From the IMG/VR virus record IMGVR_UViG_2740892442_000004: DNA of 64,000 nt, one strand, 5' to 3'. The notes beneath the pieces were generated by a model that searched no databases, was not told the DNA's origin, and was given only the letters and a program-made list of their open reading frames with translations. Source of the stretch: a virus (taxonomy: Duplodnaviria; Heunggongvirae; Uroviricota; Caudoviricetes). This document shows, one piece after another, positions 9,783 through 64,000 of the stretch (its first letter is position 1; the number at the start of each line of letters is the position of its first letter). A program made the position numbers and the translations under genes.

Positions 9783-9869
9783 GGGGAGTTAGTCCGTAGA
9801 GGTAGCGGTGTAGACTGTAAATCTACTGTCATGGCGACTCGGGTGGTTCGACTCCATCACTCCCCACCA
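9783..9869 (+). tRNA. tRNA-Tyr (anticodon GTA), long variable arm
   Basis: Acceptor ggggagt/actcccc, anticodon stem-loop gtagaCTGTAAAtctac, T-loop ggttcgactcc, CCA end. Confidence 0.65.
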
Positions 9870-12259: not shown

Positions 12260-12442
12260 ATTCCCACCAAACTCACTCCCATTTCCCTTAAAATTCAAAA
12301 AACAACGTCAAAATGATTCCATACCTACTATGTATGGAATCATTGCTGAAAATGAGTTACTTTTACTCTTGATCCTATAAGAATCTATGCCTAATATACT
12401 GTTTACTTATACAGTACATCGGCGTAACTCGGTGATTGTCAT

Positions 12443-32109: not shown

Positions 32110-32754
32110 ATGGATCTAAAACGCACGCGCTGGGTTCGTCGTCTTGAAGACGGCTCCTACACTATCGAATCAAATTCCAACCTGAATAAGCAGAAGTTGC
32201 TTTGTGACATCTGCGGTATAGCGGCGAAGTGCCCGATCTACGAAACCAGAATTAAACTTGATAAGGCTGGTGTGAATTTTCATTTAAACAGTTGCATCAG
32301 GTACGTTCCATTACTCGCATTTCGTAAACCGATCATCGGATTGGATGCTCCCTACTTCAACACACTCCGTTCAGGTGTGACGTGGCGAGATCGTTTATCA
32401 CCAGACAAGCTGATTTGCCTCGTATCCGCAGACACAGGGAAAATCATCCGTTTTGGGAAAGTAGACAAGGTTTACTCAGGCCCAGTAGACGAAATGTTGC
32501 GGAAACACAGCCGGTTTAATCATCTCTGTATGGGTGGTGAGAAAATCGAGAAGGTAGAAGAAGTGATCCGCAAATCCTACGGACACTTTCTGACCAAAGA
32601 TAGCCTGCTCACCGCAATCTACATCAGACATGTAAAACGTGAGTTCGACCTCGAATACCACAGCGAAGAAGAGCTTAACCTTGTTGACCCACGTCCAAAA
32701 GCTGGCGTCATAAGCATAAACGCAGCGCGTAAAAAGCCCACTGACGCGCTGTAA
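32110..32754 (+). CDS. hypothetical protein
   Basis: 214 aa ORF next to origin. Confidence 0.45.
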   Translation: MDLKRTRWVRRLEDGSYTIESNSNLNKQKLLCDICGIAAKCPIYETRIKLDKAGVNFHLNSCIRYVPLLAFRKPIIGLDAPYFNTLRSGVTWRDRLSPDKLICLVSADTGKIIRFGKVDKVYSGPVDEMLRKHSRFNHLCMGGEKIEKVEEVIRKSYGHFLTKDSLLTAIYIRHVKREFDLEYHSEEELNLVDPRPKAGVISINAARKKPTDAL

Positions 32755-55450: not shown

Positions 55451-55587
55451 ACGCTACAAATCCTTCGGCATGAATAAATAAAGGCCATAAGTTGTGGCCC
55501 TAAATAAATTGTTTTCTACCTTTTCTTATTTGTGAAAATAACCAGCACTTGGTAGTGCTTATGTAACAGCAAAGAAGAGAAAAACAC

Positions 55588-56139
55588 ATGAGTAACAAAA
55601 TCGAAAATCCCGTAGTTCTCATTCACAAGCGCGAGAACCACGACTCCTATGCGGTGGCGATCACCAATGGGAGTCACGATTTTTACGATGGCCTGCTAAT
55701 GGCCTCAGTGTCGCCTGATGAGGCAGACAACTCTTTTGCCGTCTTCGCTATGGTTGGTTACTACATGGCTGCCGAAATTGAGAAGTTGCGGGCGCAGAGA
55801 GACGCATTAGCGGCGGAGAATGTGGCATTGCGATCTAAGGCTGCGGAACTGGCACATGAAGCGTCAAAAATTTACTCGGCATATAACGCCACTATCACAG
55901 AGCCTGACGGGGATTTTATGGACATGCAGACATTGCATGAAATGCAGTGCATAGAAACTCCAGCCACCGATGCTTTTCTGGCTGAAGTACGTGCGCAGGG
56001 CGTGGATATGGCTCGTAACGCGATGATTGATTTTGTTGATGGTGAAGTTGGGCCAAACAAGAACGTTCCGGGGCTGATTAGAGGCGCAGAGATATGCGTA
56101 AGTATTGCTGAACTGCTTCGTAAAGGAGTCATCCAGTGA
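55588..56139 (+). CDS. hypothetical protein
   Basis: 183 aa ORF after AGAGAAAAACACATG leader. Confidence 0.45.
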   Translation: MSNKIENPVVLIHKRENHDSYAVAITNGSHDFYDGLLMASVSPDEADNSFAVFAMVGYYMAAEIEKLRAQRDALAAENVALRSKAAELAHEASKIYSAYNATITEPDGDFMDMQTLHEMQCIETPATDAFLAEVRAQGVDMARNAMIDFVDGEVGPNKNVPGLIRGAEICVSIAELLRKGVIQ

Positions 56140-56780
56140 GCAAGATTGACTATCAGGCACTGCGTGAGATAGCAGAGAAAGCAACGTGTGGTGTGTGGTC
56201 GCTCGAATATGGAGAGGGCCGATTTGATGGTGATGATGCACTAATTCATCGCGAGGCTGCTGGATATATTCCCATTTGCAGAATTGAAGGAGCGCATCCT
56301 GAAAGCGGTTTCGATGAAGATTTCCAAATGGAACAGCAGGCCAATGCTGAATTCATCGCCGCAGCCAGTCCGGCTACTGTGCTGACGCTGCTGGATGAAC
56401 GGGAAAGAAACCAGCAATACATCAAAAGCCGTGACCAGGAGAACGAGGAAATTGCGCTAACGGTAGGGAAGCTGCGTGTTGAGCTGGAAGCCGCAGAGAA
56501 GCGCATAGCAGAACTGGAGGCACGGGAAATAAAACCAGCCAAAGGCGAAGTTCTTGTCGTTGTATCTGGTTTTACTGGTTGCGGAAAAAGCGCCATTGCC
56601 GGGGAAATAGAAATCGCGATGAAGGCTATTGGTGTACCGGTTCAGTGGACTAATGGCGATGCGGAAAAGCGCATGACAGGAGCTGACTGGCTGACAGCGA
56701 TTGAGATGTACAAACCAACAGTGCGCATCGTGGAAGTTAATGTGCCACGCGCCCCTGGCATTCGCATCAAAGGAGAGTGA
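56136..56780 (+). CDS. hypothetical protein (possibly Ead/Ea22-like)
   Basis: 214 aa; N-terminal [14 protein letters not shown] segment; weak. Confidence 0.35.
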
Positions 56781-56781
56781 G

Positions 56782-57108
56782 ATGGCCACATCGCATTATG
56801 CAATCACCCAGGAAAAAGTATTTCGCTTGCTCGAACGTCTGGAGGCGCTCGCCACGGAGGAGGATATATCCCCGGAGATGCTGGTTGAGTGCAGCCGTGT
56901 GATATTGCGTCGCAAGAACGACATCGCGCGGTTGACATCTGGCGCACCATCCGTATCAGCCAGTCCAACGCTTTATTGCAGCTTCTGCAACAAATCCCAG
57001 CACGCCGTCAAAAAGTTAATTGCTGGGGACGCCGTTTTTATCTGCGACGAGTGCGTGGATGTGTGCAACAGAATTATCCGGGGAGAGAAAGAGGGATCAG
57101 CACGATGA
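56782..57108 (+). CDS. Small protein with ClpX-type zinc-binding motif
   Basis: C-terminal [37 protein letters not shown] closely parallels the ClpX N-terminal ZBD; four Cys conserved; AGGAG Shine-Dalgarno. Confidence 0.55.
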
Positions 57109-57290
57109 GAAAACTAGAGGTTCGCGCTGAAGACGTAATCCCTGGTGATGTGCTCATAACATCTAAAGGTCAACAATGTGCGGTTAAATCTTTCTGGATG
57201 GACGGTGACAAAGTGACTCTGTTCGGTACGGATGGTTCCGAAACTGATTATGACTACGACGAATTGCTTGTTGTTGAGAGAGCTGCCTAA
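57105..57290 (+). CDS. hypothetical small protein
   Basis: ATGA overlap with upstream stop; 61 aa. Confidence 0.35.
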
Positions 57291-57916
57291 TGACCACGGT
57301 TAACAATAAGAAATGCTACCCAAGCGAGAAATATCTTAATGAGCTGATCACCAACATAGAGTTTGCGGCAAGGGCACCAGTTGAAGTCGTGAGAGCAATG
57401 GCAGCAGAGCTACAGAAGCGGCGCGAAGCTGATAGTGCCGAACCTGCAAGTAATCATGAAGAGTTGCCGCTTGATTATCTCCAAGGTCAAAAAGATGGTC
57501 TTGAATGGGCTGCGCAGCTTGCAGAAGCAAATCACCCACAAACTGGCGACTGGCTTTACGATGACCCGCTGGAGCTGGCTAAAGCTATCAGAAAAGGTCC
57601 TGACATGCCCGAATTCGATGGGCCAACTCCGGTAACTCCGGATGGTTGGATAAGCTGTAGTGAGCAGATGCCTGTAATCGGCGAGCTAAATTGGAGAACT
57701 GGTTTTCCTTTGCTGATTACGTGTGAGATCGGCGTTATACCAGCTTATTACGGCTTTGTGAGCGTTAATGGGGATAAGCATTATGGTTTTATGGAAAGTT
57801 TTAAATACGGAGACGATCGCGGCGGCCATCCTAAAACTAATGAATATGGTCTGATTAGCAATGTCACACACTGGATGCCGCTACCAGAACCTCCGCAGGA
57901 GTCGAAGAGTGAATAA
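57290..57916 (+). CDS. hypothetical protein
   Basis: 208 aa ORF. Confidence 0.45.
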   Translation: MTTVNNKKCYPSEKYLNELITNIEFAARAPVEVVRAMAAELQKRREADSAEPASNHEELPLDYLQGQKDGLEWAAQLAEANHPQTGDWLYDDPLELAKAIRKGPDMPEFDGPTPVTPDGWISCSEQMPVIGELNWRTGFPLLITCEIGVIPAYYGFVSVNGDKHYGFMESFKYGDDRGGHPKTNEYGLISNVTHWMPLPEPPQESKSE

Positions 57917-58130
57917 AGCAGAGTTATTTCAGAAAATATCGGCTCTCGCGACTGAATGCCACGCTATAGCATCTGAGCTTGATGTTGGCGATGAACGAAC
58001 CGAGATGTTCGAAATATACAGTGTGCTGCGCAATCTCTGTCGGCGTGGCTACGCCACTCAAGTAGGGCGAATGACTAACCCACTACTCTCATCCTGTGAT
58101 GAGGATGACTCGGATGAGGATGACGAATGA
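57909..58130 (+). CDS. hypothetical small acidic protein
   Basis: GTG start with AGGAG 6 nt upstream; ORF opens at 57861. Confidence 0.35.
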   Translation: MNKAELFQKISALATECHAIASELDVGDERTEMFEIYSVLRNLCRRGYATQVGRMTNPLLSSCDEDDSDEDDE

Positions 58131-58510
58131 TGCATAAATCAGTAGCCGGTGAGTTTCAGAAGGAAGTCGATAATACCACTGATCTATTGGACGATATTTT
58201 AAGCATTCTCGCGCTGCTTGAGGCTGGCGATTGGTCAGAACATTGCACTAAAACAGAGCTAGGCGGTCGGCTTGAAAGAGAGATTACACGACTGATTAGC
58301 GATGCCCAAAATGATTTGTCACCTGAGCATCTCCCCTGCGATGTAGTTCTTGTGCCAGGGATGAGGATACACGAAGGCGTCAGAACGAAAACATTATTAA
58401 CCGCATTACAGAGAAGAGCCGAACTAAGCTCGCGGATAAAGTTGATGCCATCCAAAATATTTGATGTCGTCAAATTTATGCCATCGCAACATACTGAGAG
58501 AGATAAATGA
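58127..58510 (+). CDS. hypothetical protein
   Basis: 127 aa ORF, ATGA overlap. Confidence 0.4.
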   Translation: MMHKSVAGEFQKEVDNTTDLLDDILSILALLEAGDWSEHCTKTELGGRLEREITRLISDAQNDLSPEHLPCDVVLVPGMRIHEGVRTKTLLTALQRRAELSSRIKLMPSKIFDVVKFMPSQHTERDK

Positions 58511-59133
58511 GCACGGTAGCGAAAGATCTCACAGAAGATATTCTCAATGAAATTATTGCTGGTGCAAATACCTCGCTTGAGCAACTTCTTGCGTTAGCAC
58601 TGAGAGCCGAACGTCGAGACAGAAATCGTTTTTATGAGCGATTACCAGGGAAGCGACCAGATAGATCGGATGAAGAAGGTTGCGATATAGACTACATGGA
58701 GCCTTCAGAGATTTATCAACTTGGTAAAGATGACGGCTGGAACGCTTATCACGATGCTGTGATGAAGTTGGATGAAAAAGTTAAACCTCTTTCTCGACCG
58801 GTAGATCACGGTTTCCGCGATAACTGCGAATGCTCTAGTTGCCAGACCACGGCCCGTATTTGTTCCGAATTGACAGATAAGTCCAGCCTAATCTACGAAG
58901 TTAATGTAGGCGGTAATACATGGGTCGAATGCACAAGAGCTGCATACGTAAGAGCAAAAGACAAGGGTGAATTAACCAGAGTTGTTACCAATCACCCAAA
59001 TAATGAGCTTAAAGATCACCAGATTCGAGAACTGGTGAACGAGTTGAGAGATATTGCGGTTCAGTACCACGGAACGCAGCAATTGCGGGAGAAGATTGCC
59101 AGAGCAGTGAACAACTCAGTCCGTAAAAAATAA
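58507..59133 (+). CDS. hypothetical protein
   Basis: 208 aa ORF. Confidence 0.45.
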   Translation: MSTVAKDLTEDILNEIIAGANTSLEQLLALALRAERRDRNRFYERLPGKRPDRSDEEGCDIDYMEPSEIYQLGKDDGWNAYHDAVMKLDEKVKPLSRPVDHGFRDNCECSSCQTTARICSELTDKSSLIYEVNVGGNTWVECTRAAYVRAKDKGELTRVVTNHPNNELKDHQIRELVNELRDIAVQYHGTQQLREKIARAVNNSVRKK

Positions 59134-59188
59134 GCAATAGTACGATAAAGAGGCCCCATGCTCTTGATGGGGCCTGTAGCAACTAGCG

Positions 59189-59272
59189 TTATGGACGCTG
59201 GTTTACGTACTCAATGATCGCTTTGATAATCGCGAACATCGGCGGCACGATTTTGAACAGTAAGTTAACCAT
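59189..59272 (-). CDS. candidate small hydrophobic peptide (27 aa)
   Basis: MVNLLFKIVPPMFAIIKAIIEYVNQRP with GAGG Shine-Dalgarno about 8 nt upstream; below the ORF-track size cut-off. Confidence 0.25.
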   Translation of the reverse strand: MVNLLFKIVPPMFAIIKAIIEYVNQRP

Positions 59273-59572
59273 AACAGGCCTCACTTAGTTTTATCGCGCC
59301 TAGCTGCAAATACCTTTGGGCTTGCCTTTGCAGTTGCAATATCTGTAGTCGCCAGATACTTACGGCACGATTTCGAGTTAAGGTAAGGTTTTAGAGTCAC
59401 CAAAAACCTGGACTTAAATCTTCTTTGAGAACAACGATGTTTAGTAAATGGTCATTATTACCTGGTATGACCACTCAACGTTTCTTGATGAATCCAGTAC
59501 ATTCGGTTAATCTTAATTCAGTCGCCAGATACTTATGGCTCAGGAACAGAGCCGCAAACTCTGTTTCCTTTT

Positions 59573-59604
59573 AAAAAGCCCAGCCTAGTCAACTGGGCTT
59601 TTTA
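59573..59604. terminator. Bidirectional rho-independent terminator
   Basis: agcccagcctagtcaactgggct flanked by A-run and T-run. Confidence 0.55.
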
Positions 59605-59701
59605 ATGTCTATTTTTAACCCAATGAACCTTCAATACCGCAACATCAGTGTCTTGCGAATTAAGATAGTGTGTATAGGTTATGCATGCAAGTGCATAACT
59701 C

Positions 59702-59710
59702 TGTGGATAA
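59702..59710 (-). promoter_or_regulatory. Perfect DnaA-box sequence
   Basis: tgtggataa is the exact reverse complement of TTATCCACA. Confidence 0.35.
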
Positions 59711-59898
59711 CTCAGGAAGGAAAAAGTAGCTTCCGCGCAATTTAGGCCAGACAAGGCTTTCGCAAAAGTCAACAGAGAGAAAAAATTTGTTAAAAATAAC
59801 GTTTGTTGGAATTATATATATTTATGCCTTTCAATAGTTAGCATCTTATTAACATCTTTTTTAAGAGATAGAGTTCAAAAATATATAGCTTCAACATA

Positions 59899-59918
59899 TA
59901 CTGTATGTATATACAGTA
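59899..59918 (+). promoter_or_regulatory. LexA (SOS) box upstream of UmuD'-like gene
   Basis: TACTGTATGTATATACAGTA matches CTGT-N8-ACAG perfectly; 17 nt upstream of ATG 59935. Confidence 0.75.
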
Positions 59919-59934
59919 TTAAGAGGCGAGTATT

Positions 59935-60324
59935 ATGGGCTTCCCTTCTCCTGCGGCGGATTATGCTGAGAGCCGTATTTCTCTTGATCAGCAGATAATT
60001 AGACATCCTTCAGCGACCTACTTCATGAGGGCAGCTGATAGTCATCATCGTGAGGGAATATTACAGGGTGCATTGCTGGTGGTCGATTCCTCACTTACCC
60101 CGGTTGATGGTTCTCTGCTTGTATGCGCTCTGGATGGGGAATATCGCGTAAAAAGATACCGGAAGTATCCACGTCAGCATCTGGAGGATTTAAGAACCGG
60201 TAAGAAGGAAGCATTGCCAAAGGATGACGATGGATGCACGGGCAGCAATGCCGTGTTTGGTGTGATCACTCACATTATCAACGACGCAAGAAGTGGCGAG
60301 TTTGATGATTGTCCCGTGATGTAG
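59935..60324 (+). CDS. UmuD'-like S24 peptidase-fold protein (resembles phage P1 HumD-type UmuD' analogue)
   Basis: Begins MGFPSPAADY, i.e. at the position of the UmuD Cys24-Gly25 cleavage site; Ser (ADSHH) and Lys (RVKRY) dyad positions retained; no umuC-like gene follows. Confidence 0.65.
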   Translation: MGFPSPAADYAESRISLDQQIIRHPSATYFMRAADSHHREGILQGALLVVDSSLTPVDGSLLVCALDGEYRVKRYRKYPRQHLEDLRTGKKEALPKDDDGCTGSNAVFGVITHIINDARSGEFDDCPVM

Positions 60325-60336
60325 GAGAACTGATTA

Positions 60337-60360
60337 GGCGGTGCAATGCACCGCCTTTTT
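60337..60360 (+). terminator. Rho-independent terminator
   Basis: ggcggtgcaatgcaccgcc followed by ttttt; ends 2 nt before apbC stop codon. Confidence 0.65.
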
Positions 60361-60361
60361 A

Positions 60362-61462
60362 TCACACTGCGCGGAATGCGATTTCGCCAGGTATTACTTC
60401 ACCTTGCCAATACATTTGGGCAGCAACGCGATCTGCGAGGTCACGATAAATAGCCGTAAATTCGCTATCTGGACGACTAATAACGGTTGGTGTTCCGTTA
60501 TCCAGATCTTCACGAAGAGAGATATGAAGTGGCATTTGGCCTAACAACTGCGTGTTGTATTTCTCGGCCAGTTTCTGTGCGCCACCGGTGCCAAAAATTG
60601 GCTCGTGATGACCGCAGTTACTGCAAATATGCACACTCATGTTTTCGACGATACCCAGTACCGGCACTTCGACTTTTTCGAACATCACAATGCCTTTCTT
60701 CGCATCGATCAGCGCGATGTCTTGCGGCGTAGTTACCACAACCGCACCAGTTACAGGAATGTTCTGCGCCAGCGTCAACTGAATATCACCAGTGCCCGGC
60801 GGCATATCGAGAACGAGATAGTCCAGATCAGGCCATAGAGTTTCCTGCAACATCTGCATCAGCGCCTTGCTGGCCATCGGTCCACGCCACACCATTGCAT
60901 TGTCGTCGGTGACCAGATAACCAATAGAGTTGGTTGCCAGGCCATGAGACATGATAGGTGCCATGTGAGTACCGTCAGGTGAGGTTGGACGTTGGTTTTC
61001 CGCGCCCAGCATGGTTGGAATTGATGGACCATAGATATCGGCATCCAAAATACCAACTTTCGCACCTTCAGCAGCCAACGCCAGTGCCAGGTTTACCGCC
61101 GTGGAGGATTTACCCACGCCGCCCTTGCCTGAGCTGACGGCGATAATGTTCTTAACGCCATTAATGCCTGGTTGGTTTTTGACGCGCTTAAGCGTGGCAA
61201 TGTTGTACGACAGCTTCCAGTCAATAGCCTTTGCGCCAGTGATACGGAGCAGATCACCACTACATTGCTCTTTCAGGTCTTCAAAAGGCTTATTCCACAC
61301 GAAAGGCATGATTAGTTCGACATGCAGTGTGTCATCCATCAACGCAACATGGTGTAACGCTTTAAGCGTAGTCAGGTTGTGTTTCAGGGTTGGGTGCTGA
61401 AAATTAGCCAGCGTACCGGCTACCATTGCTCTCAGGGCATCCGGCGATTTGGACTCGCTCAT
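60362..61462 (-). CDS. apbC: Fe-S cluster carrier ATPase ApbC/Mrp
   Basis: 366 aa; essentially collinear with E. coli Mrp as recalled; P-loop SSGKGGVGKSS; CxxC-containing ICSNCGHHEP. Confidence 0.9.
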   Translation of the reverse strand: MSESKSPDALRAMVAGTLANFQHPTLKHNLTTLKALHHVALMDDTLHVELIMPFVWNKPFEDLKEQCSGDLLRITGAKAIDWKLSYNIATLKRVKNQPGINGVKNIIAVSSGKGGVGKSSTAVNLALALAAEGAKVGILDADIYGPSIPTMLGAENQRPTSPDGTHMAPIMSHGLATNSIGYLVTDDNAMVWRGPMASKALMQMLQETLWPDLDYLVLDMPPGTGDIQLTLAQNIPVTGAVVVTTPQDIALIDAKKGIVMFEKVEVPVLGIVENMSVHICSNCGHHEPIFGTGGAQKLAEKYNTQLLGQMPLHISLREDLDNGTPTVISRPDSEFTAIYRDLADRVAAQMYWQGEVIPGEIAFRAV

Positions 61463-61619
61463 CCCGTCTCCTTTATTTTAATTTGCGCAATTGTCGCCTT
61501 GTAGTGTACTCCAGCTACGACATTTAATCATTTATGAGAAATGCTGTTATCACATGGCAGACATAAGGCCATTTTGTTACTATCAAGCCCCTTTTCACTA
61601 CAAAGAAGTAATGCCTACT

Positions 61620-63653
61620 ATGACCCAAGTCGCGAAGAAAATTCTGGTGACGTGCGCGCTGCCGTACGCTAACGGCTCAATCCACCTCGGCCATATGCTG
61701 GAGCACATCCAGGCTGATGTCTGGGTTCGTTACCAGCGAATGCGCGGCCACGAGGTTAATTTCATCTGTGCCGACGATGCCCACGGTACGCCGATCATGC
61801 TGAAAGCACAGCAGCTTGGTATCACACCGGAGCAGATGATTGGCGAAATGAGTCAGGAACACCAGACTGATTTCGCAGGCTTTAACATCAGCTATGACAA
61901 CTATCACTCGACGCACAGCGAAGAGAACCGTCAGTTGTCTGAGCTTATCTATACTCGCCTGAAAGAGAACGGTTTTATTAAAAACCGCACTATCTCTCAG
62001 TTGTACGACCCGGAAAAAGGCATGTTCCTGCCGGATCGTTTTGTAAAAGGCACCTGCCCGAAATGTAAAGCGCCAGATCAATACGGCGATAACTGTGAAG
62101 TCTGCGGCGCAACATATAGCCCGACTGAATTGATCGAGCCGAAATCGGTGGTTTCTGGCGCTACCCCGGTAATGCGTGATTCCGAACACTTCTTCTTTGA
62201 TCTGCCTTCTTTCAGCGAAATGTTGCAGGCATGGACCCGCAGCGGCGCGTTGCAGGAGCAGGTGGCGAACAAAATGCAGGAATGGTTTGAATCCGGCCTG
62301 CAACAGTGGGATATCTCCCGAGATGCGCCTTACTTCGGTTTTGAAATTCCGAACGCGCCGGGCAAATATTTCTACGTCTGGCTGGACGCGCCGATTGGCT
62401 ACATGGGTTCCTTCAAGAATCTGTGCGACAAGCGCGGCGATACCACCAGCTTCGATGAATACTGGAAGAAAGACTCCACCGCCGAGCTGTACCACTTCAT
62501 CGGTAAAGATATTGTTTACTTCCACAGCCTGTTCTGGCCTGCCATGCTGGAAGGCAGCAACTTCCGCAAGCCGACCAACCTGTTTGTTCACGGCTATGTG
62601 ACGGTGAACGGCGCGAAGATGTCCAAGTCTCGCGGCACCTTTATTAAAGCCAGCACCTGGCTGAATCATTTTGACGCCGACAGCCTGCGTTACTACTACA
62701 CTGCGAAACTCTCTTCGCGCATTGATGATATCGATCTCAACCTGGAGAATTTCGTTCAGCGCGTGAATGCCGATATCGTGAACAAAGTGGTTAACCTGGC
62801 CTCCCGTAATGCAGGCTTTATCAACAAGCGTTTTGACGGCGTGCTGGCAAGCGAACTGGCTGACCCGCAACTGTACAAAACCTTTACTGATGCCGCTGAA
62901 GTGATTGGCGAAGCATGGGAAAGCCGCGAATTTGGTAAAGCTATCCGTGAAATCATGGCATTGGCTGACCTGGCTAACCGCTATGTCGATGAACAGGCTC
63001 CGTGGGTGGTGGCGAAGCAGGAAGGACGCGATGCCGATCTGCAGGCGATTTGCTCTATGGGCATTAACCTGTTCCGCGTGCTGATGACGTACCTGAAGCC
63101 GGTACTGCCGAAACTGACTGAACGTGCAGAAGCATTCCTGAATACAGAACTGACCTGGGATGGTATCCAGCAACCGCTGCTGGGCCATAAAGTGAATCCG
63201 TTCAAGGCACTGTATAACCGCATCGATATGAAGCAGGTTGAAGCACTGGTGGAAGCATCCAAAGAAGAAGTGAAAGCCACAGCCGCACCGGTAACTGGCC
63301 CACTGGCTGACGACCCGATTCAGGAAACTATCACCTTTGACGACTTCGCCAAAGTTGACCTGCGCGTGGCGCTGATTGAAAACGCAGAGTTTGTAGAAGG
63401 TTCTGACAAACTGCTTCGCCTGACGCTGGATCTCGGTGGTGAAAAGCGTAATGTCTTCTCAGGCATCCGTTCCGCTTATCCAGATCCACAGGCACTGATT
63501 GGTCGTCACACCATTATGGTGGCTAACCTGGCACCACGTAAAATGCGCTTCGGTATCTCTGAAGGCATGGTGATGGCTGCTGGCCCCGGCGGGAAAGATA
63601 TCTTCCTGTTAAGCCCGGATGCTGGTGCTAAACCTGGCCACCAGGTTAAGTAA
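61620..63653 (+). CDS. metG: Methionyl-tRNA synthetase
   Basis: 677 aa from [26 protein letters not shown] (HIGH) with KMSKS; near-identical to E. coli MetG as recalled; track ORF opens upstream at 61491 with non-native extension. Confidence 0.92.
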
Positions 63654-63673
63654 TTAAACAACCTCTCTTCGCA

Positions 63674-63699
63674 ATGCCCGGCAACACGCCGGGCATTTT
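63674..63699 (+). terminator. Rho-independent terminator after metG
   Basis: atgcccggcaacacgccgggcat followed by ttt. Confidence 0.65.
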
Positions 63700-63736
63700 C
63701 ATATAGACACAATCCCTTCTGATTTACACAGTACCT

Positions 63737-63802
63737 AAAACAATTTGTTTTCTGCCTTTTGTTGATGGAGATAATAAACCACATAAGAAAACAACTTGTT
63801 TT
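63737..63802 (+). promoter_or_regulatory. Two tandem phage-type palindromes (AAAACAATTTGTTTT, AAAACAACTTGTTTT) plus ACCACATAAGAAAAC leader
   Basis: Same elements as upstream of genes in the phage-like region; located downstream of metG. Confidence 0.45.
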
Positions 63803-63814
63803 GGAGTGGTTGAA

Positions 63815-64000
63815 ATGTTGAACATTACCCAAGCCTACCAGGTGGCATTGATCAGCTCATCTCATACATCAGAGGAAGATGCTCGCCGATTCATGATCGC
63901 AAGCAATGAGCTGGATTGGGTTTCACAAATTGAGTACGGTTGCATTGTCCACGCCGGGTTACAGGACGATGACTGGAAAGATGAGTTGCGTCGATATGGT
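63815..64000 (+). CDS. hypothetical protein (partial; 3' end beyond window end)
   Basis: ATG 63815 after the tandem palindromes; open to the window end. Confidence 0.4.
   Translation, partial: MLNITQAYQVALISSSHTSEEDARRFMIASNELDWVSQIEYGCIVHAGLQDDDWKDELRRYG

Follow-up and report, generated by a model that had tools for sequence, protein, structure and literature searches.

A host-derived apbC–metG gene pair, intact and apparently selectively maintained, in SSU5-like phage-plasmids of Escherichia

The 64,000-nucleotide stretch of DNA from the virus record IMGVR_UViG_2740892442_000004 (the whole stretch is called the window below) carries, close to its right end, two genes of the chromosomal housekeeping type, apbC and metG, which lie divergently among genes of phage type. 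By its sequence, the window evidently is part of an Escherichia-type SSU5-like phage-plasmid of the pLF82/phage Cyrano group. The pair appears to be a conserved, intact and selectively maintained host-derived module that possesses a conserved regulatory region and exchanges sequence with chromosomes. An earlier note on this DNA had described a UmuD'-like gene (humD) with a LexA box, a terminator, apbC on the minus strand, metG on the plus strand, a hairpin and tandem palindromes; all of these lie at the positions that it had assigned to them (Table 1).

The predicted product of apbC matches the ApbC equivalog model with 759.3 bits (cut-off 348) over residues 2-366 and contains the deviant Walker A motif GKGGVGKS at residue 112 and the CXXC ligand motif, CSNC, at residue 280. 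It is three residues shorter at the N-terminus than chromosomal ApbC. Of its 19 substitutions relative to the protein of Escherichia coli K-12, 12 fall in residues 3-86 and seven in residues 296-362, with none in the NTPase core (residues 87-295). The homologue in phage Cyrano, CYRAN_99 (OV696614.1), carries the annotation 'septum site-determining protein MinD', the name under which it was listed as a moron; since MinD models score far below their cut-offs with the window protein, and the ApbC equivalog reaches 759 bits, this annotation is a misnomer.

The product of metG is predicted to be a full-length methionyl-tRNA synthetase (MetRS) of the gammaproteobacterial dimeric type, capable of aminoacylation. 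It matches the MetRS equivalog with 1018.2 bits (cut-off 587) over residues 4-677, as well as the Pfam families tRNA-synt_1g, Anticodon_3 and tRNA_bind, the last being the C-terminal tRNA-binding domain. The motifs HLGH (residue 22) and KMSKS (residue 333) and the zinc knuckle CPKC (residue 146) and CEVC (residue 159) are present. The protein is 98.7-99.3% identical to the MetRS of Escherichia chromosomes, and its catalytic and anticodon-binding domains are free of lineage-specific substitutions. Sites at which most plasmids differ from E. coli have the state found in E. albertii; the sole plasmid-specific majority state is T554, located in the linker.

Positions 59000-64000 are 98.9% identical to Escherichia phage Cyrano (pLF82, OV696614), and the order of humD, apbC, metG and the downstream open reading frame (ORF) is the same. 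Three other phage records contain the 5-kb region with 95.8-97.8% identity over 81-100% of its length. The PLSDB database has 156 closed plasmids, about 105-125 kb in size, in which 80% or more of the region is covered and the gene order is the same; they are from E. coli, Shigella, E. albertii and E. marmotae. Searched alone, metG is found in 208 plasmid records and the backbone gene nrdA in 172 Escherichia/Shigella-type plasmids, with at least 98.5% identity in the listed members of the latter. ApbC of the phage-plasmid type is present in 32 IMG/VR contigs. All 5,426 complete E. coli genomes have a chromosomal copy of the pair, with up to 239 further matches on plasmids. PLSDB includes chromosome-sized entries, such as NZ_CP141089.1 (4.94 Mb), NZ_CP134663.1 (4.90 Mb), NZ_OL790696.1 (4.80 Mb) and CP125156.1 (5.37 Mb), which yield chromosomal metG or der matches labelled as plasmid and can mislead counts of plasmid-borne copies. 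MetRS matches occur in just 26 of 50,697 phage records, mostly as tiny fragments or in megaphages, so that a temperate phage of about 108 kb is an unusual carrier of this gene.

The rest of the window is also of the phage-plasmid type. Backbone genes at 32-54 kb are 96-100% identical to those of two plasmids of the pLF82/Cyrano group, and the Cyrano annotation of the homologous stretch includes ParA, helicase, primase, ligase, DnaE, RecA-like protein, UvsY, SSB, RepA, SbcCD, RuvC, NrdAB, ThyX, DHFR and tRNAs. Phage Cyrano makes virions, is induced by ciprofloxacin and is present at about 5.5 copies per cell (PMC9928086). By analogy, the element studied here, known from its 64-kb window sequence, is predicted to be maintained as a plasmid and to produce virions. 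In Klebsiella and Enterobacter there is a sister lineage of 363 plasmids (301 from Klebsiella among all matches), whose nrdA is about 77% identical, and metG turns up in only five Klebsiella records, some of them replicons of 727 kb or more. The apbC–metG module is essentially universal in the Escherichia lineage and absent from the Klebsiella/Enterobacter sister lineage. Phage SSU5 gave no match to the 55.5-64 kb part in two BLAST modes, so no empty site can be defined. The module is annotated in hundreds of public records and is apparently not discussed in the literature searched, where no paper joining metG or apbC with these elements was found.

Homology to the K-12 chromosome is confined to positions 60366-63654 (3.29 kb), the interval between the two stop codons. 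On the chromosome, the pair is flanked by yehE (upstream) and a DUF4132 gene (downstream); the element has neither. Among the Enterobacterales chromosomal loci listed (80 of at least 592, without Salmonella, E. fergusonii, E. marmotae and others), apbC and metG are divergent at all 78 with enough flanking sequence, so the transfer was from chromosome to element; a Salmonella record examined separately has a disrupted apbC and was left out for this gene. A chromosome-type divergent pair captured by the element within phage-type DNA, as the earlier note had suggested, is borne out by these data. Its proposal of a captured segment of roughly 3.3 kb holds for the two genes, does not hold for the metG terminator and holds only for 47 nt of the shared promoter region. 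Those 47 nt (61573-61619, immediately upstream of metG), with the -10 element TACTAT and the leader, are the only part of the intergenic region resembling 82 Enterobacterales chromosomal loci. The other 110 nt, the sequences following the metG and apbC stop codons and both terminators have no counterpart at these loci, and the hairpin on the metG side is unlike the K-12 metG terminator.

Table 1. Features of the apbC–metG locus and its flanks; positions are those of the window
Feature	Position	Strand	Details
Promoter-like TTCAAA-17-TATACT upstream of humD	59874-59916	+	Overlapped by LexA box
Perfect LexA box CTGTATGTATATACAG	59901-59916		Overlaps humD promoter-like site
humD (UmuD'-like, P1 HumD family), 129 aa	59935-60324	+	NCBIfam HumD equivalog, 219.8 bits (cut-off 120)
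Hairpin terminator plus T-run	Hairpin 60336-60356, to 60361	+	Between humD and apbC stop codons
apbC (mrp), Fe-S cluster carrier ATPase, 366 aa	60362-61462	-	ApbC equivalog NF008669
Divergent intergenic (promoter) region, 157 nt	61463-61619		Between apbC and metG
metG, methionine-tRNA ligase, 677 aa	61620-63653	+	MetRS equivalog NF001100
Terminator-like hairpin after metG	63673-63704, hairpin 63673-63697	+	GCCCGGC-loop-GCCGGGC, then UUUUCAU; -19.1 kcal/mol, z = -6.5
Two tandem AAAACAAyTTGTTT copies	63737-63750 and 63788-63801	+	Before ORF starting at 63815
Next phage-plasmid ORF, CYRAN_101 homologue	63815-64000	+	Runs off window

Variation in the short divergent promoter region is far below that at the adjacent synonymous sites. 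Its diversity in 35 phage-plasmids is 0.0037 (five variable sites), versus 0.104 and 0.042 at the third codon positions of metG and apbC, respectively, and this near-invariance includes the 110 nt that lack a chromosomal template. The region contains the palindrome TTGCGCAA at 61483-61490. The metG promoter has a conserved -10 element and leader and a poor -35 element; a consensus scan finds no site in the intergenic region.

The two genes differ strongly in their distance from present chromosomes. Compared with E. coli K-12, metG is 94.1% identical at the nucleotide level and 98.7% at the protein level, with a synonymous divergence per site (dS) of 0.287 and a ratio of nonsynonymous to synonymous divergence (dN/dS) of 0.023; for apbC, the corresponding values are 82.1%, 94.8%, 1.545 and 0.02. 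The description of both proteins as essentially host-identical in the earlier note is wrong. The dS to E. albertii is 0.367 for metG and about 1.5 for apbC, and to Citrobacter it is 0.76-0.85 and 1.4-4.8. Between E. coli and E. albertii, the respective values are 0.343 and 0.618 and, between E. coli and Citrobacter, 0.69-0.77 and 1.08-1.43. The dS of metG to E. coli is, therefore, similar to the distance between E. coli and E. albertii, and that of apbC is at or beyond the depth separating Escherichia from Citrobacter. Neighbour-joining trees, used only for topology and branch lengths, agree: the MetRS proteins of plasmids are interleaved with those of E. coli and E. albertii, and their ApbC proteins lie on a long branch of their own next to the Escherichia and Citrobacter clades. 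The GC content at third codon positions (GC3) of apbC is 0.526, versus 0.61-0.65 on chromosomes, which suggests a long residence on the 46%-GC element; metG, with 0.612 versus 0.625, has almost no such shift.

The histories of apbC and metG differ, apbC representing a deep lineage and metG a lineage at the depth of the genus Escherichia. This is most simply read as an old capture in which Escherichia-type sequence later replaced, or continually refreshes, the metG half, with a breakpoint near 61570. None of the chromosomal loci listed has an ApbC above 94.8% identity that could be taken for the donor. A single ancient donor of metG was considered and rejected. The union of the non-K-12 states in six alleles is farther from the outgroups (84-85% identity) than K-12 is (87-88%); since the reconstructed allele is farther than K-12 from every outgroup, the variants did not come from one old donor.

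Both genes are intact wherever they were compared. All 25 complete metG alleles (25 distinct DNA sequences encoding 17 proteins) are open, and their polymorphic codons comprise 275 with synonymous changes only and 20 with amino acid changes (mean dS 0.183, mean dN 0.0023, mean dN/dS 0.012). The 38 apbC alleles, comprising 30 DNA sequences and nine proteins, are likewise all intact, with 104 synonymous-only and nine amino-acid-changing polymorphic codons (mean dS 0.072, mean dN 0.0011, mean dN/dS 0.015). The plasmid copy of apbC is too diverged for import from chromosomes, so its low dN/dS indicates selection on the element.

The diversity of the pair exceeds that of the backbone. Compared with plasmid pF404-2, the backbone genes of the window mostly have a dS of 0-0.03, with many 100% identical, versus 0.251 for metG and 0.131 for apbC; compared with an E. 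marmotae plasmid, the values are mostly no more than 0.09 for the backbone, 0.336 for metG and 0.135 for apbC. The nrdA gene is at least 99% identical to that of the window in 150 of the 172 Escherichia-type plasmids, and metG is that close in 31 of the 208 records. A confinement of this divergence to chromosome-homologous DNA was rejected, because humD and the non-coding flanks also vary between elements (84-97% identity). Elsewhere in the window, an ASCH-domain gene (32110-32754) has a dS of 0.253 and a dN of 0 to its pF404-2 homologue, and identity is 100% in the next genes compared. Here, too, a patch has diverged by synonymous changes only, probably through an allelic swap.

Recombination has strongly shaped metG. 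Among its 25 alleles, 52% of informative site pairs fail the four-gamete test, the pairwise homoplasy index (PHI) test is significant (p = 0.0005) and the minimum number of recombination events is 83; apbC requires no fewer than 16 events, and its PHI test is not significant. Elements whose metG genes differ by 2.5-4.2% (95.8-97.5% identity) may have apbC genes that are 99.9-100% identical. In one plasmid metG allele (L098), the 344 nt at positions 427-770 of the gene are identical to an E. coli chromosomal allele, from which the other 24 plasmid alleles differ here by 7-20 mismatches. In the Cyrano lineage, apbC departs from the plasmid consensus at 19 sites, and 13 of these have the E. coli chromosomal base, versus about 2.5 estimated for random mutation; the 13 are clustered at nt 309-390 and 534-567, and the gene has an 80-nt exact run with K-12, compared with a median of 29 nt. 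Judging by these matches, both tracts were clearly copied from E. coli chromosomes. The exchange demonstrated is, thus, from chromosome to element; the reverse is only possible.

The donor of the Cyrano apbC tract is evidently not its present host, LF82. Cyrano differs from the chromosome of LF82 by 131 mismatches in metG and 189 in apbC. Host-matched conversion was considered for Cyrano and rejected, as the apbC patches match K-12-type E. coli rather than LF82 specifically and metG is no closer to LF82; similarly, the allele of an E. albertii plasmid is not closer to the E. albertii chromosome. The metG allele of the E. marmotae plasmid has no close match among E. coli chromosomes. Long recent K-12-like conversion tracts were also sought in the first six alleles, where none exceeded 131 nt; clear tracts appeared only in the larger sample. 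The plasmid metG alleles have 84-134 mismatches from K-12 and about 130 from LF82, and K-12 and LF82 differ from each other by 69, so the plasmid pool is distinct from the chromosomal diversity of E. coli. It may be proposed that metG keeps recombining with the host copy because it is still about 94% identical to it, and that apbC, at 82%, mostly does not.

The best overall explanation, which is considered probable, is a variable accessory arm with a long-resident cargo module, apbC–metG, acquired from an enterobacterial chromosome. Several points weigh against this explanation or limit it. Diversity above that of the backbone is found throughout the accessory arm, so chromosomal conversion is not the sole source of the diversity of metG. 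The low dN/dS of metG could partly reflect the import of already purified chromosomal sequence. No donor lineage of apbC was found among the chromosomal loci listed, and a distant donor and fast evolution on the element are inseparable. In the one lysogen transcriptome, metG is barely transcribed, although reads may have been mis-assigned between copies that are 94% identical. Finally, any selective benefit of the module, like any phenotype linked to it, is putative.

The lysogen transcriptome is that of strain LF82 carrying Cyrano. There, CYRAN_99 (apbC) is listed as a moron, with expression nine times the local background and a log2(5+fpkm) of 6.7, where fpkm denotes fragments per kilobase per million reads (PMC9928086). 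For CYRAN_100 (metG), the value is 4.2, falling to about 3 (PMC9928086, S1 Table); this is about 1.6 times the background (16 vs near 10), and the gene is not listed as a moron (PMC9928086). A dosage benefit of metG in lysogeny is, consequently, doubtful.

According to the mechanism proposed here, the pair would be transcribed from its own sigma-70-type divergent promoters, independently of the palindromic motif AAAACAAyTTGTTT, which is a putative operator or promoter of the element and is absent from the pair and its intergenic region. An element with roughly five copies would thereby gain its own MetRS and Fe-S carrier, beside its tRNAs, NrdAB, ThyX, DHFR and DnaE. These elements do tend to carry housekeeping functions, namely their own tRNAs, NrdAB, ThyX, DHFR and DnaE and, in three relatives, Der. 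An autonomous supply of MetRS and the Fe-S carrier is the leading guess as to the selected function, though a tentative one that falls a little short of being favoured outright. Its main difficulty is the weak expression of metG in the lysogen; given that weakness, the contribution of MetRS may count mainly outside the conditions sampled, for example during lytic growth.

A further suggestion, somewhat unlikely as it stands, is that the metG half serves as a standing homology bridge between a multi-copy, recombination-proficient phage-plasmid and Escherichia chromosomes, exchanging the sequence of an essential gene, possibly in both directions. If so, the 108-kb element could occasionally enter the chromosome at metG by a single crossover and mobilise the chromosomal DNA next to it, and it would shuttle alleles of an essential translation gene between species. 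The conserved, element-specific promoter region would then point to a regulatory input timing the production of extra MetRS and ApbC.

In another explanation, the module would be kept mainly as a patch of homology at which integration, mobilisation or transduction of the chromosome, or the exchange of alleles can occur, and not for its proteins. The chromosome-to-element conversion, the extreme mosaicism of metG and the RecA-like, UvsY, SSB, SbcCD and RuvC proteins encoded by the element are all consistent with it. It leaves unexplained, however, the conservation of apbC, of the promoter region and of the protein sequences, and no integrated copy at metG was seen, though the search for one was not systematic; this alternative is considered improbable. 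It is also quite improbable that the pair is a non-functional passenger, neutral hitch-hiking DNA that looks intact only due to gene conversion from the chromosome. Conversion tracts do exist and metG is poorly transcribed in the lysogen, but apbC, whose longest exact runs with the chromosome have a median of 29 nt, is too diverged to be maintained in this way and is nevertheless intact in 38 of 38 alleles. The 110 nt of the promoter region without a chromosomal template are nearly invariant and the pair is kept even in a reduced derivative of 62 kb, which also argues against a passenger.

Two other origins or roles can be assigned very low probability. The 98.7% amino acid identity of MetRS to K-12 might suggest a recent capture from the present E. 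coli host. The dS values of 0.29 for metG and about 1.5 for apbC contradict this, as do the shift of apbC GC3 towards the composition of the element and the Cyrano copies, which are no closer to the LF82 chromosome (131 and 189 mismatches); over the segment, the chromosomes of the 5,426 E. coli genomes are only 89.6-90.4% identical. An inhibitor- or toxin-resistant second MetRS, similar to MupA for the isoleucyl enzyme (IleRS) or to the self-immunity aminoacyl-tRNA synthetases (aaRS) of antibiotic producers, would fit the classic role of plasmid-borne second aaRS genes (PMC9437257). Resistant paralogues, however, are usually highly divergent, and the only plasmid-specific majority state here, T554, lies in the linker and not in the catalytic or anticodon-binding domains.

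The remaining alternatives, both raised by the earlier note, have practically no probability left. The integration of the element beside chromosomal apbC–metG, or a rearrangement bringing chromosomal DNA next to it, has no observation in its favour and does not agree with the absence of yehE and the DUF4132 gene, with homology that stops exactly at both stop codons or with flanks that both match circular plasmids of 105-115 kb, and the 5,426 complete E. coli genomes hold a chromosomal copy as well. A chimeric assembly, in which chromosomal reads were misjoined into a phage-plasmid contig, has in its favour only the a priori oddity of two chromosome-type housekeeping genes inside phage-type DNA and falls because the same junctions recur in the 156 closed plasmids from many laboratories and sequencing platforms, in four phage records (one with K-12 MG1655 as host) and in about 30 IMG/VR contigs, and because the plasmid copy, 6% (metG) and 18% (apbC) away from every E. 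coli chromosome, cannot consist of chromosomal reads.

The system is not of a new kind; temperate phages that carry host genes are known, and this is an uncharacterised case of one. Cyrano and other SSU5-like phage-plasmids of Escherichia, including PhiR41_1 and the 111,741-bp NZ_MK125035.1, which has the length published for pECOH89, are elements of the same type with the same module; compared with Cyrano, the window has a metG of 99.0% and an apbC of 98.3% identity and an additional tRNA-Tyr. In all, the window encodes four tRNAs; tRNA-Tyr is located at 9783-9869, between tRNA-Asn and tRNA-Thr, and the Cyrano annotation has only Asn, Thr and Ser. The chromosomal apbC (mrp)–metG pair of Enterobacterales has the same genes, divergent order and lengths, and the metG leader and -10 element are conserved, but the DNA differs by 6% in metG and 18% in apbC and the promoter on the apbC side and both terminators are unrelated.

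As with phage morons and other auxiliary genes derived from hosts, host-type genes with a putative promoter and terminator of their own are found among phage genes, and the apbC of Cyrano is expressed above the prophage background in the lysogen (PMC9928086). The cargo here, however, is a core housekeeping pair with one essential member and not a virulence, defence or metabolic accessory gene. Huge phages (over 200 kb) likewise possess host-related aaRS genes together with phage tRNA genes (Al-Shayeb et al. 2020, PMC7162821); in this case, the carrier is a temperate plasmid-prophage of about 108 kb and its MetRS is close to that of the host, not 'distinct but related' (PMC7162821). Plasmid-borne second aaRS genes of the MupA/IleRS2 type (PMC9437257) are, similarly, second copies of an essential aaRS gene on an extrachromosomal element, but the MetRS of the window lacks a divergent inhibitor-insensitive sequence and lineage-specific catalytic substitutions.

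About 4% of complete E. coli genomes carry the element (up to 239 plasmid matches in 5,426 genomes), and some lineages of the element spread resistance genes. In a sizeable part of E. coli, therefore, an essential aaRS and an Fe-S carrier each have a second, multi-copy gene. Because a wild-type plasmid copy could mask chromosomal metG mutations, the element matters for inhibitors directed at MetRS and for antibiotic tolerance linked to metG. Multilocus sequence typing (MLST) or read-mapping schemes that use metG are affected by a paralogue of 94% identity. The module also bears on how phage-plasmids acquire and keep host genes, and the contrast between a diverged, insulated apbC and a metG that still recombines offers a natural experiment on how divergence gates recombination between element and host.

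The accessory arm is mosaic, and what lies to the left of apbC differs between elements. Most of them have humD there; in the window, humD lies outside the captured segment and is 85-87% identical in DNA to humD of P1, P7 and D6. The Cyrano homologue, CYRAN_98, rises from 7.4 to 12.3 (log2) in macrophage-grown LF82 (PMC9928086, S1 Table). The terminator on the humD side ends 1-2 nt before the apbC stop codon (60362-60364); it is kept in phage-plasmids with another left neighbour, but not in the der variant. In that variant, der, encoding the ribosome-assembly GTPase EngA, adjoins apbC instead of humD. It is found in three elements (L090:7290-8762 in NZ_CP072690.1, NZ_CP146383.1 and NZ_CP148383.1), and this der shares 91.5% identity with its counterpart on the E. 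coli chromosome. It represents another, independent capture of a translation-related host gene at this site. In a 62-kb derivative from E. albertii (L125, CP043239.1), the left neighbours are a GNAT gene and a polysaccharide deacetylase gene. This derivative has apbC–metG intact, lacks the annotated nrdAB, thyX and most of the DNA-metabolism block and also carries the host acid-stress chaperone genes hdeA and hdeB.

On the right flank, the tandem copies of the palindromic motif mark the return to regulatory DNA of the phage-plasmid type. The motif has 11 matches in the window versus 0.14 expected, at eight positions. At seven of these (1705, 28690, 40001, 50231, 50960, 63737 and 63788), it lies 15-35 nt upstream of a plus-strand start, and the ribosome-binding site GGAAAnCACATG precedes the start at five of the seven; the tandem pair before 63815 is without GGAAAnCACATG. 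The eighth position, 55502, is a one-mismatch match on the minus strand with no start codon after it. A longer form of the motif is (T)AAG-AAAACAAyTTGTTT. The palindrome is probably an operator or promoter for a regulator encoded by the element. CYRAN_101, the homologue of the ORF that follows, is silent in the Cyrano lysogen (PMC9928086, S1 Table).

Further left, positions 55500-59130 carry lambdoid early-left 'ea' genes (Ead/Ea22, Eaa, Eae and DUF551-type) with 86-95% identity to HK620, HK140, N7, P1 and D6; the shared block shows exchange of DNA between the phage-plasmid described here, phages of the lambdoid type and P1-like phage-plasmids. Another exact LexA-type box, CTGTTTACTTATACAG, is located at 12399-12414, in the region homologous to the integrase/repressor part of Cyrano. 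An Rfam scan of 58.9-64 kb gave no match at threshold. Sub-threshold matches to AgrB (27.6 bits, E 0.14) and RNAI lie at 59517-59606, with a terminator at 59582-59599, and the 19-nt direct repeat GTCGCCAGATACTTAyGGC occurs at 59348 and 59521. The stretch 59340-59606 (plus strand), which belongs to an ORF-poor 0.8 kb upstream of the LexA-controlled humD, could encode a small antisense RNA or a locus similar to a type I toxin–antitoxin system.

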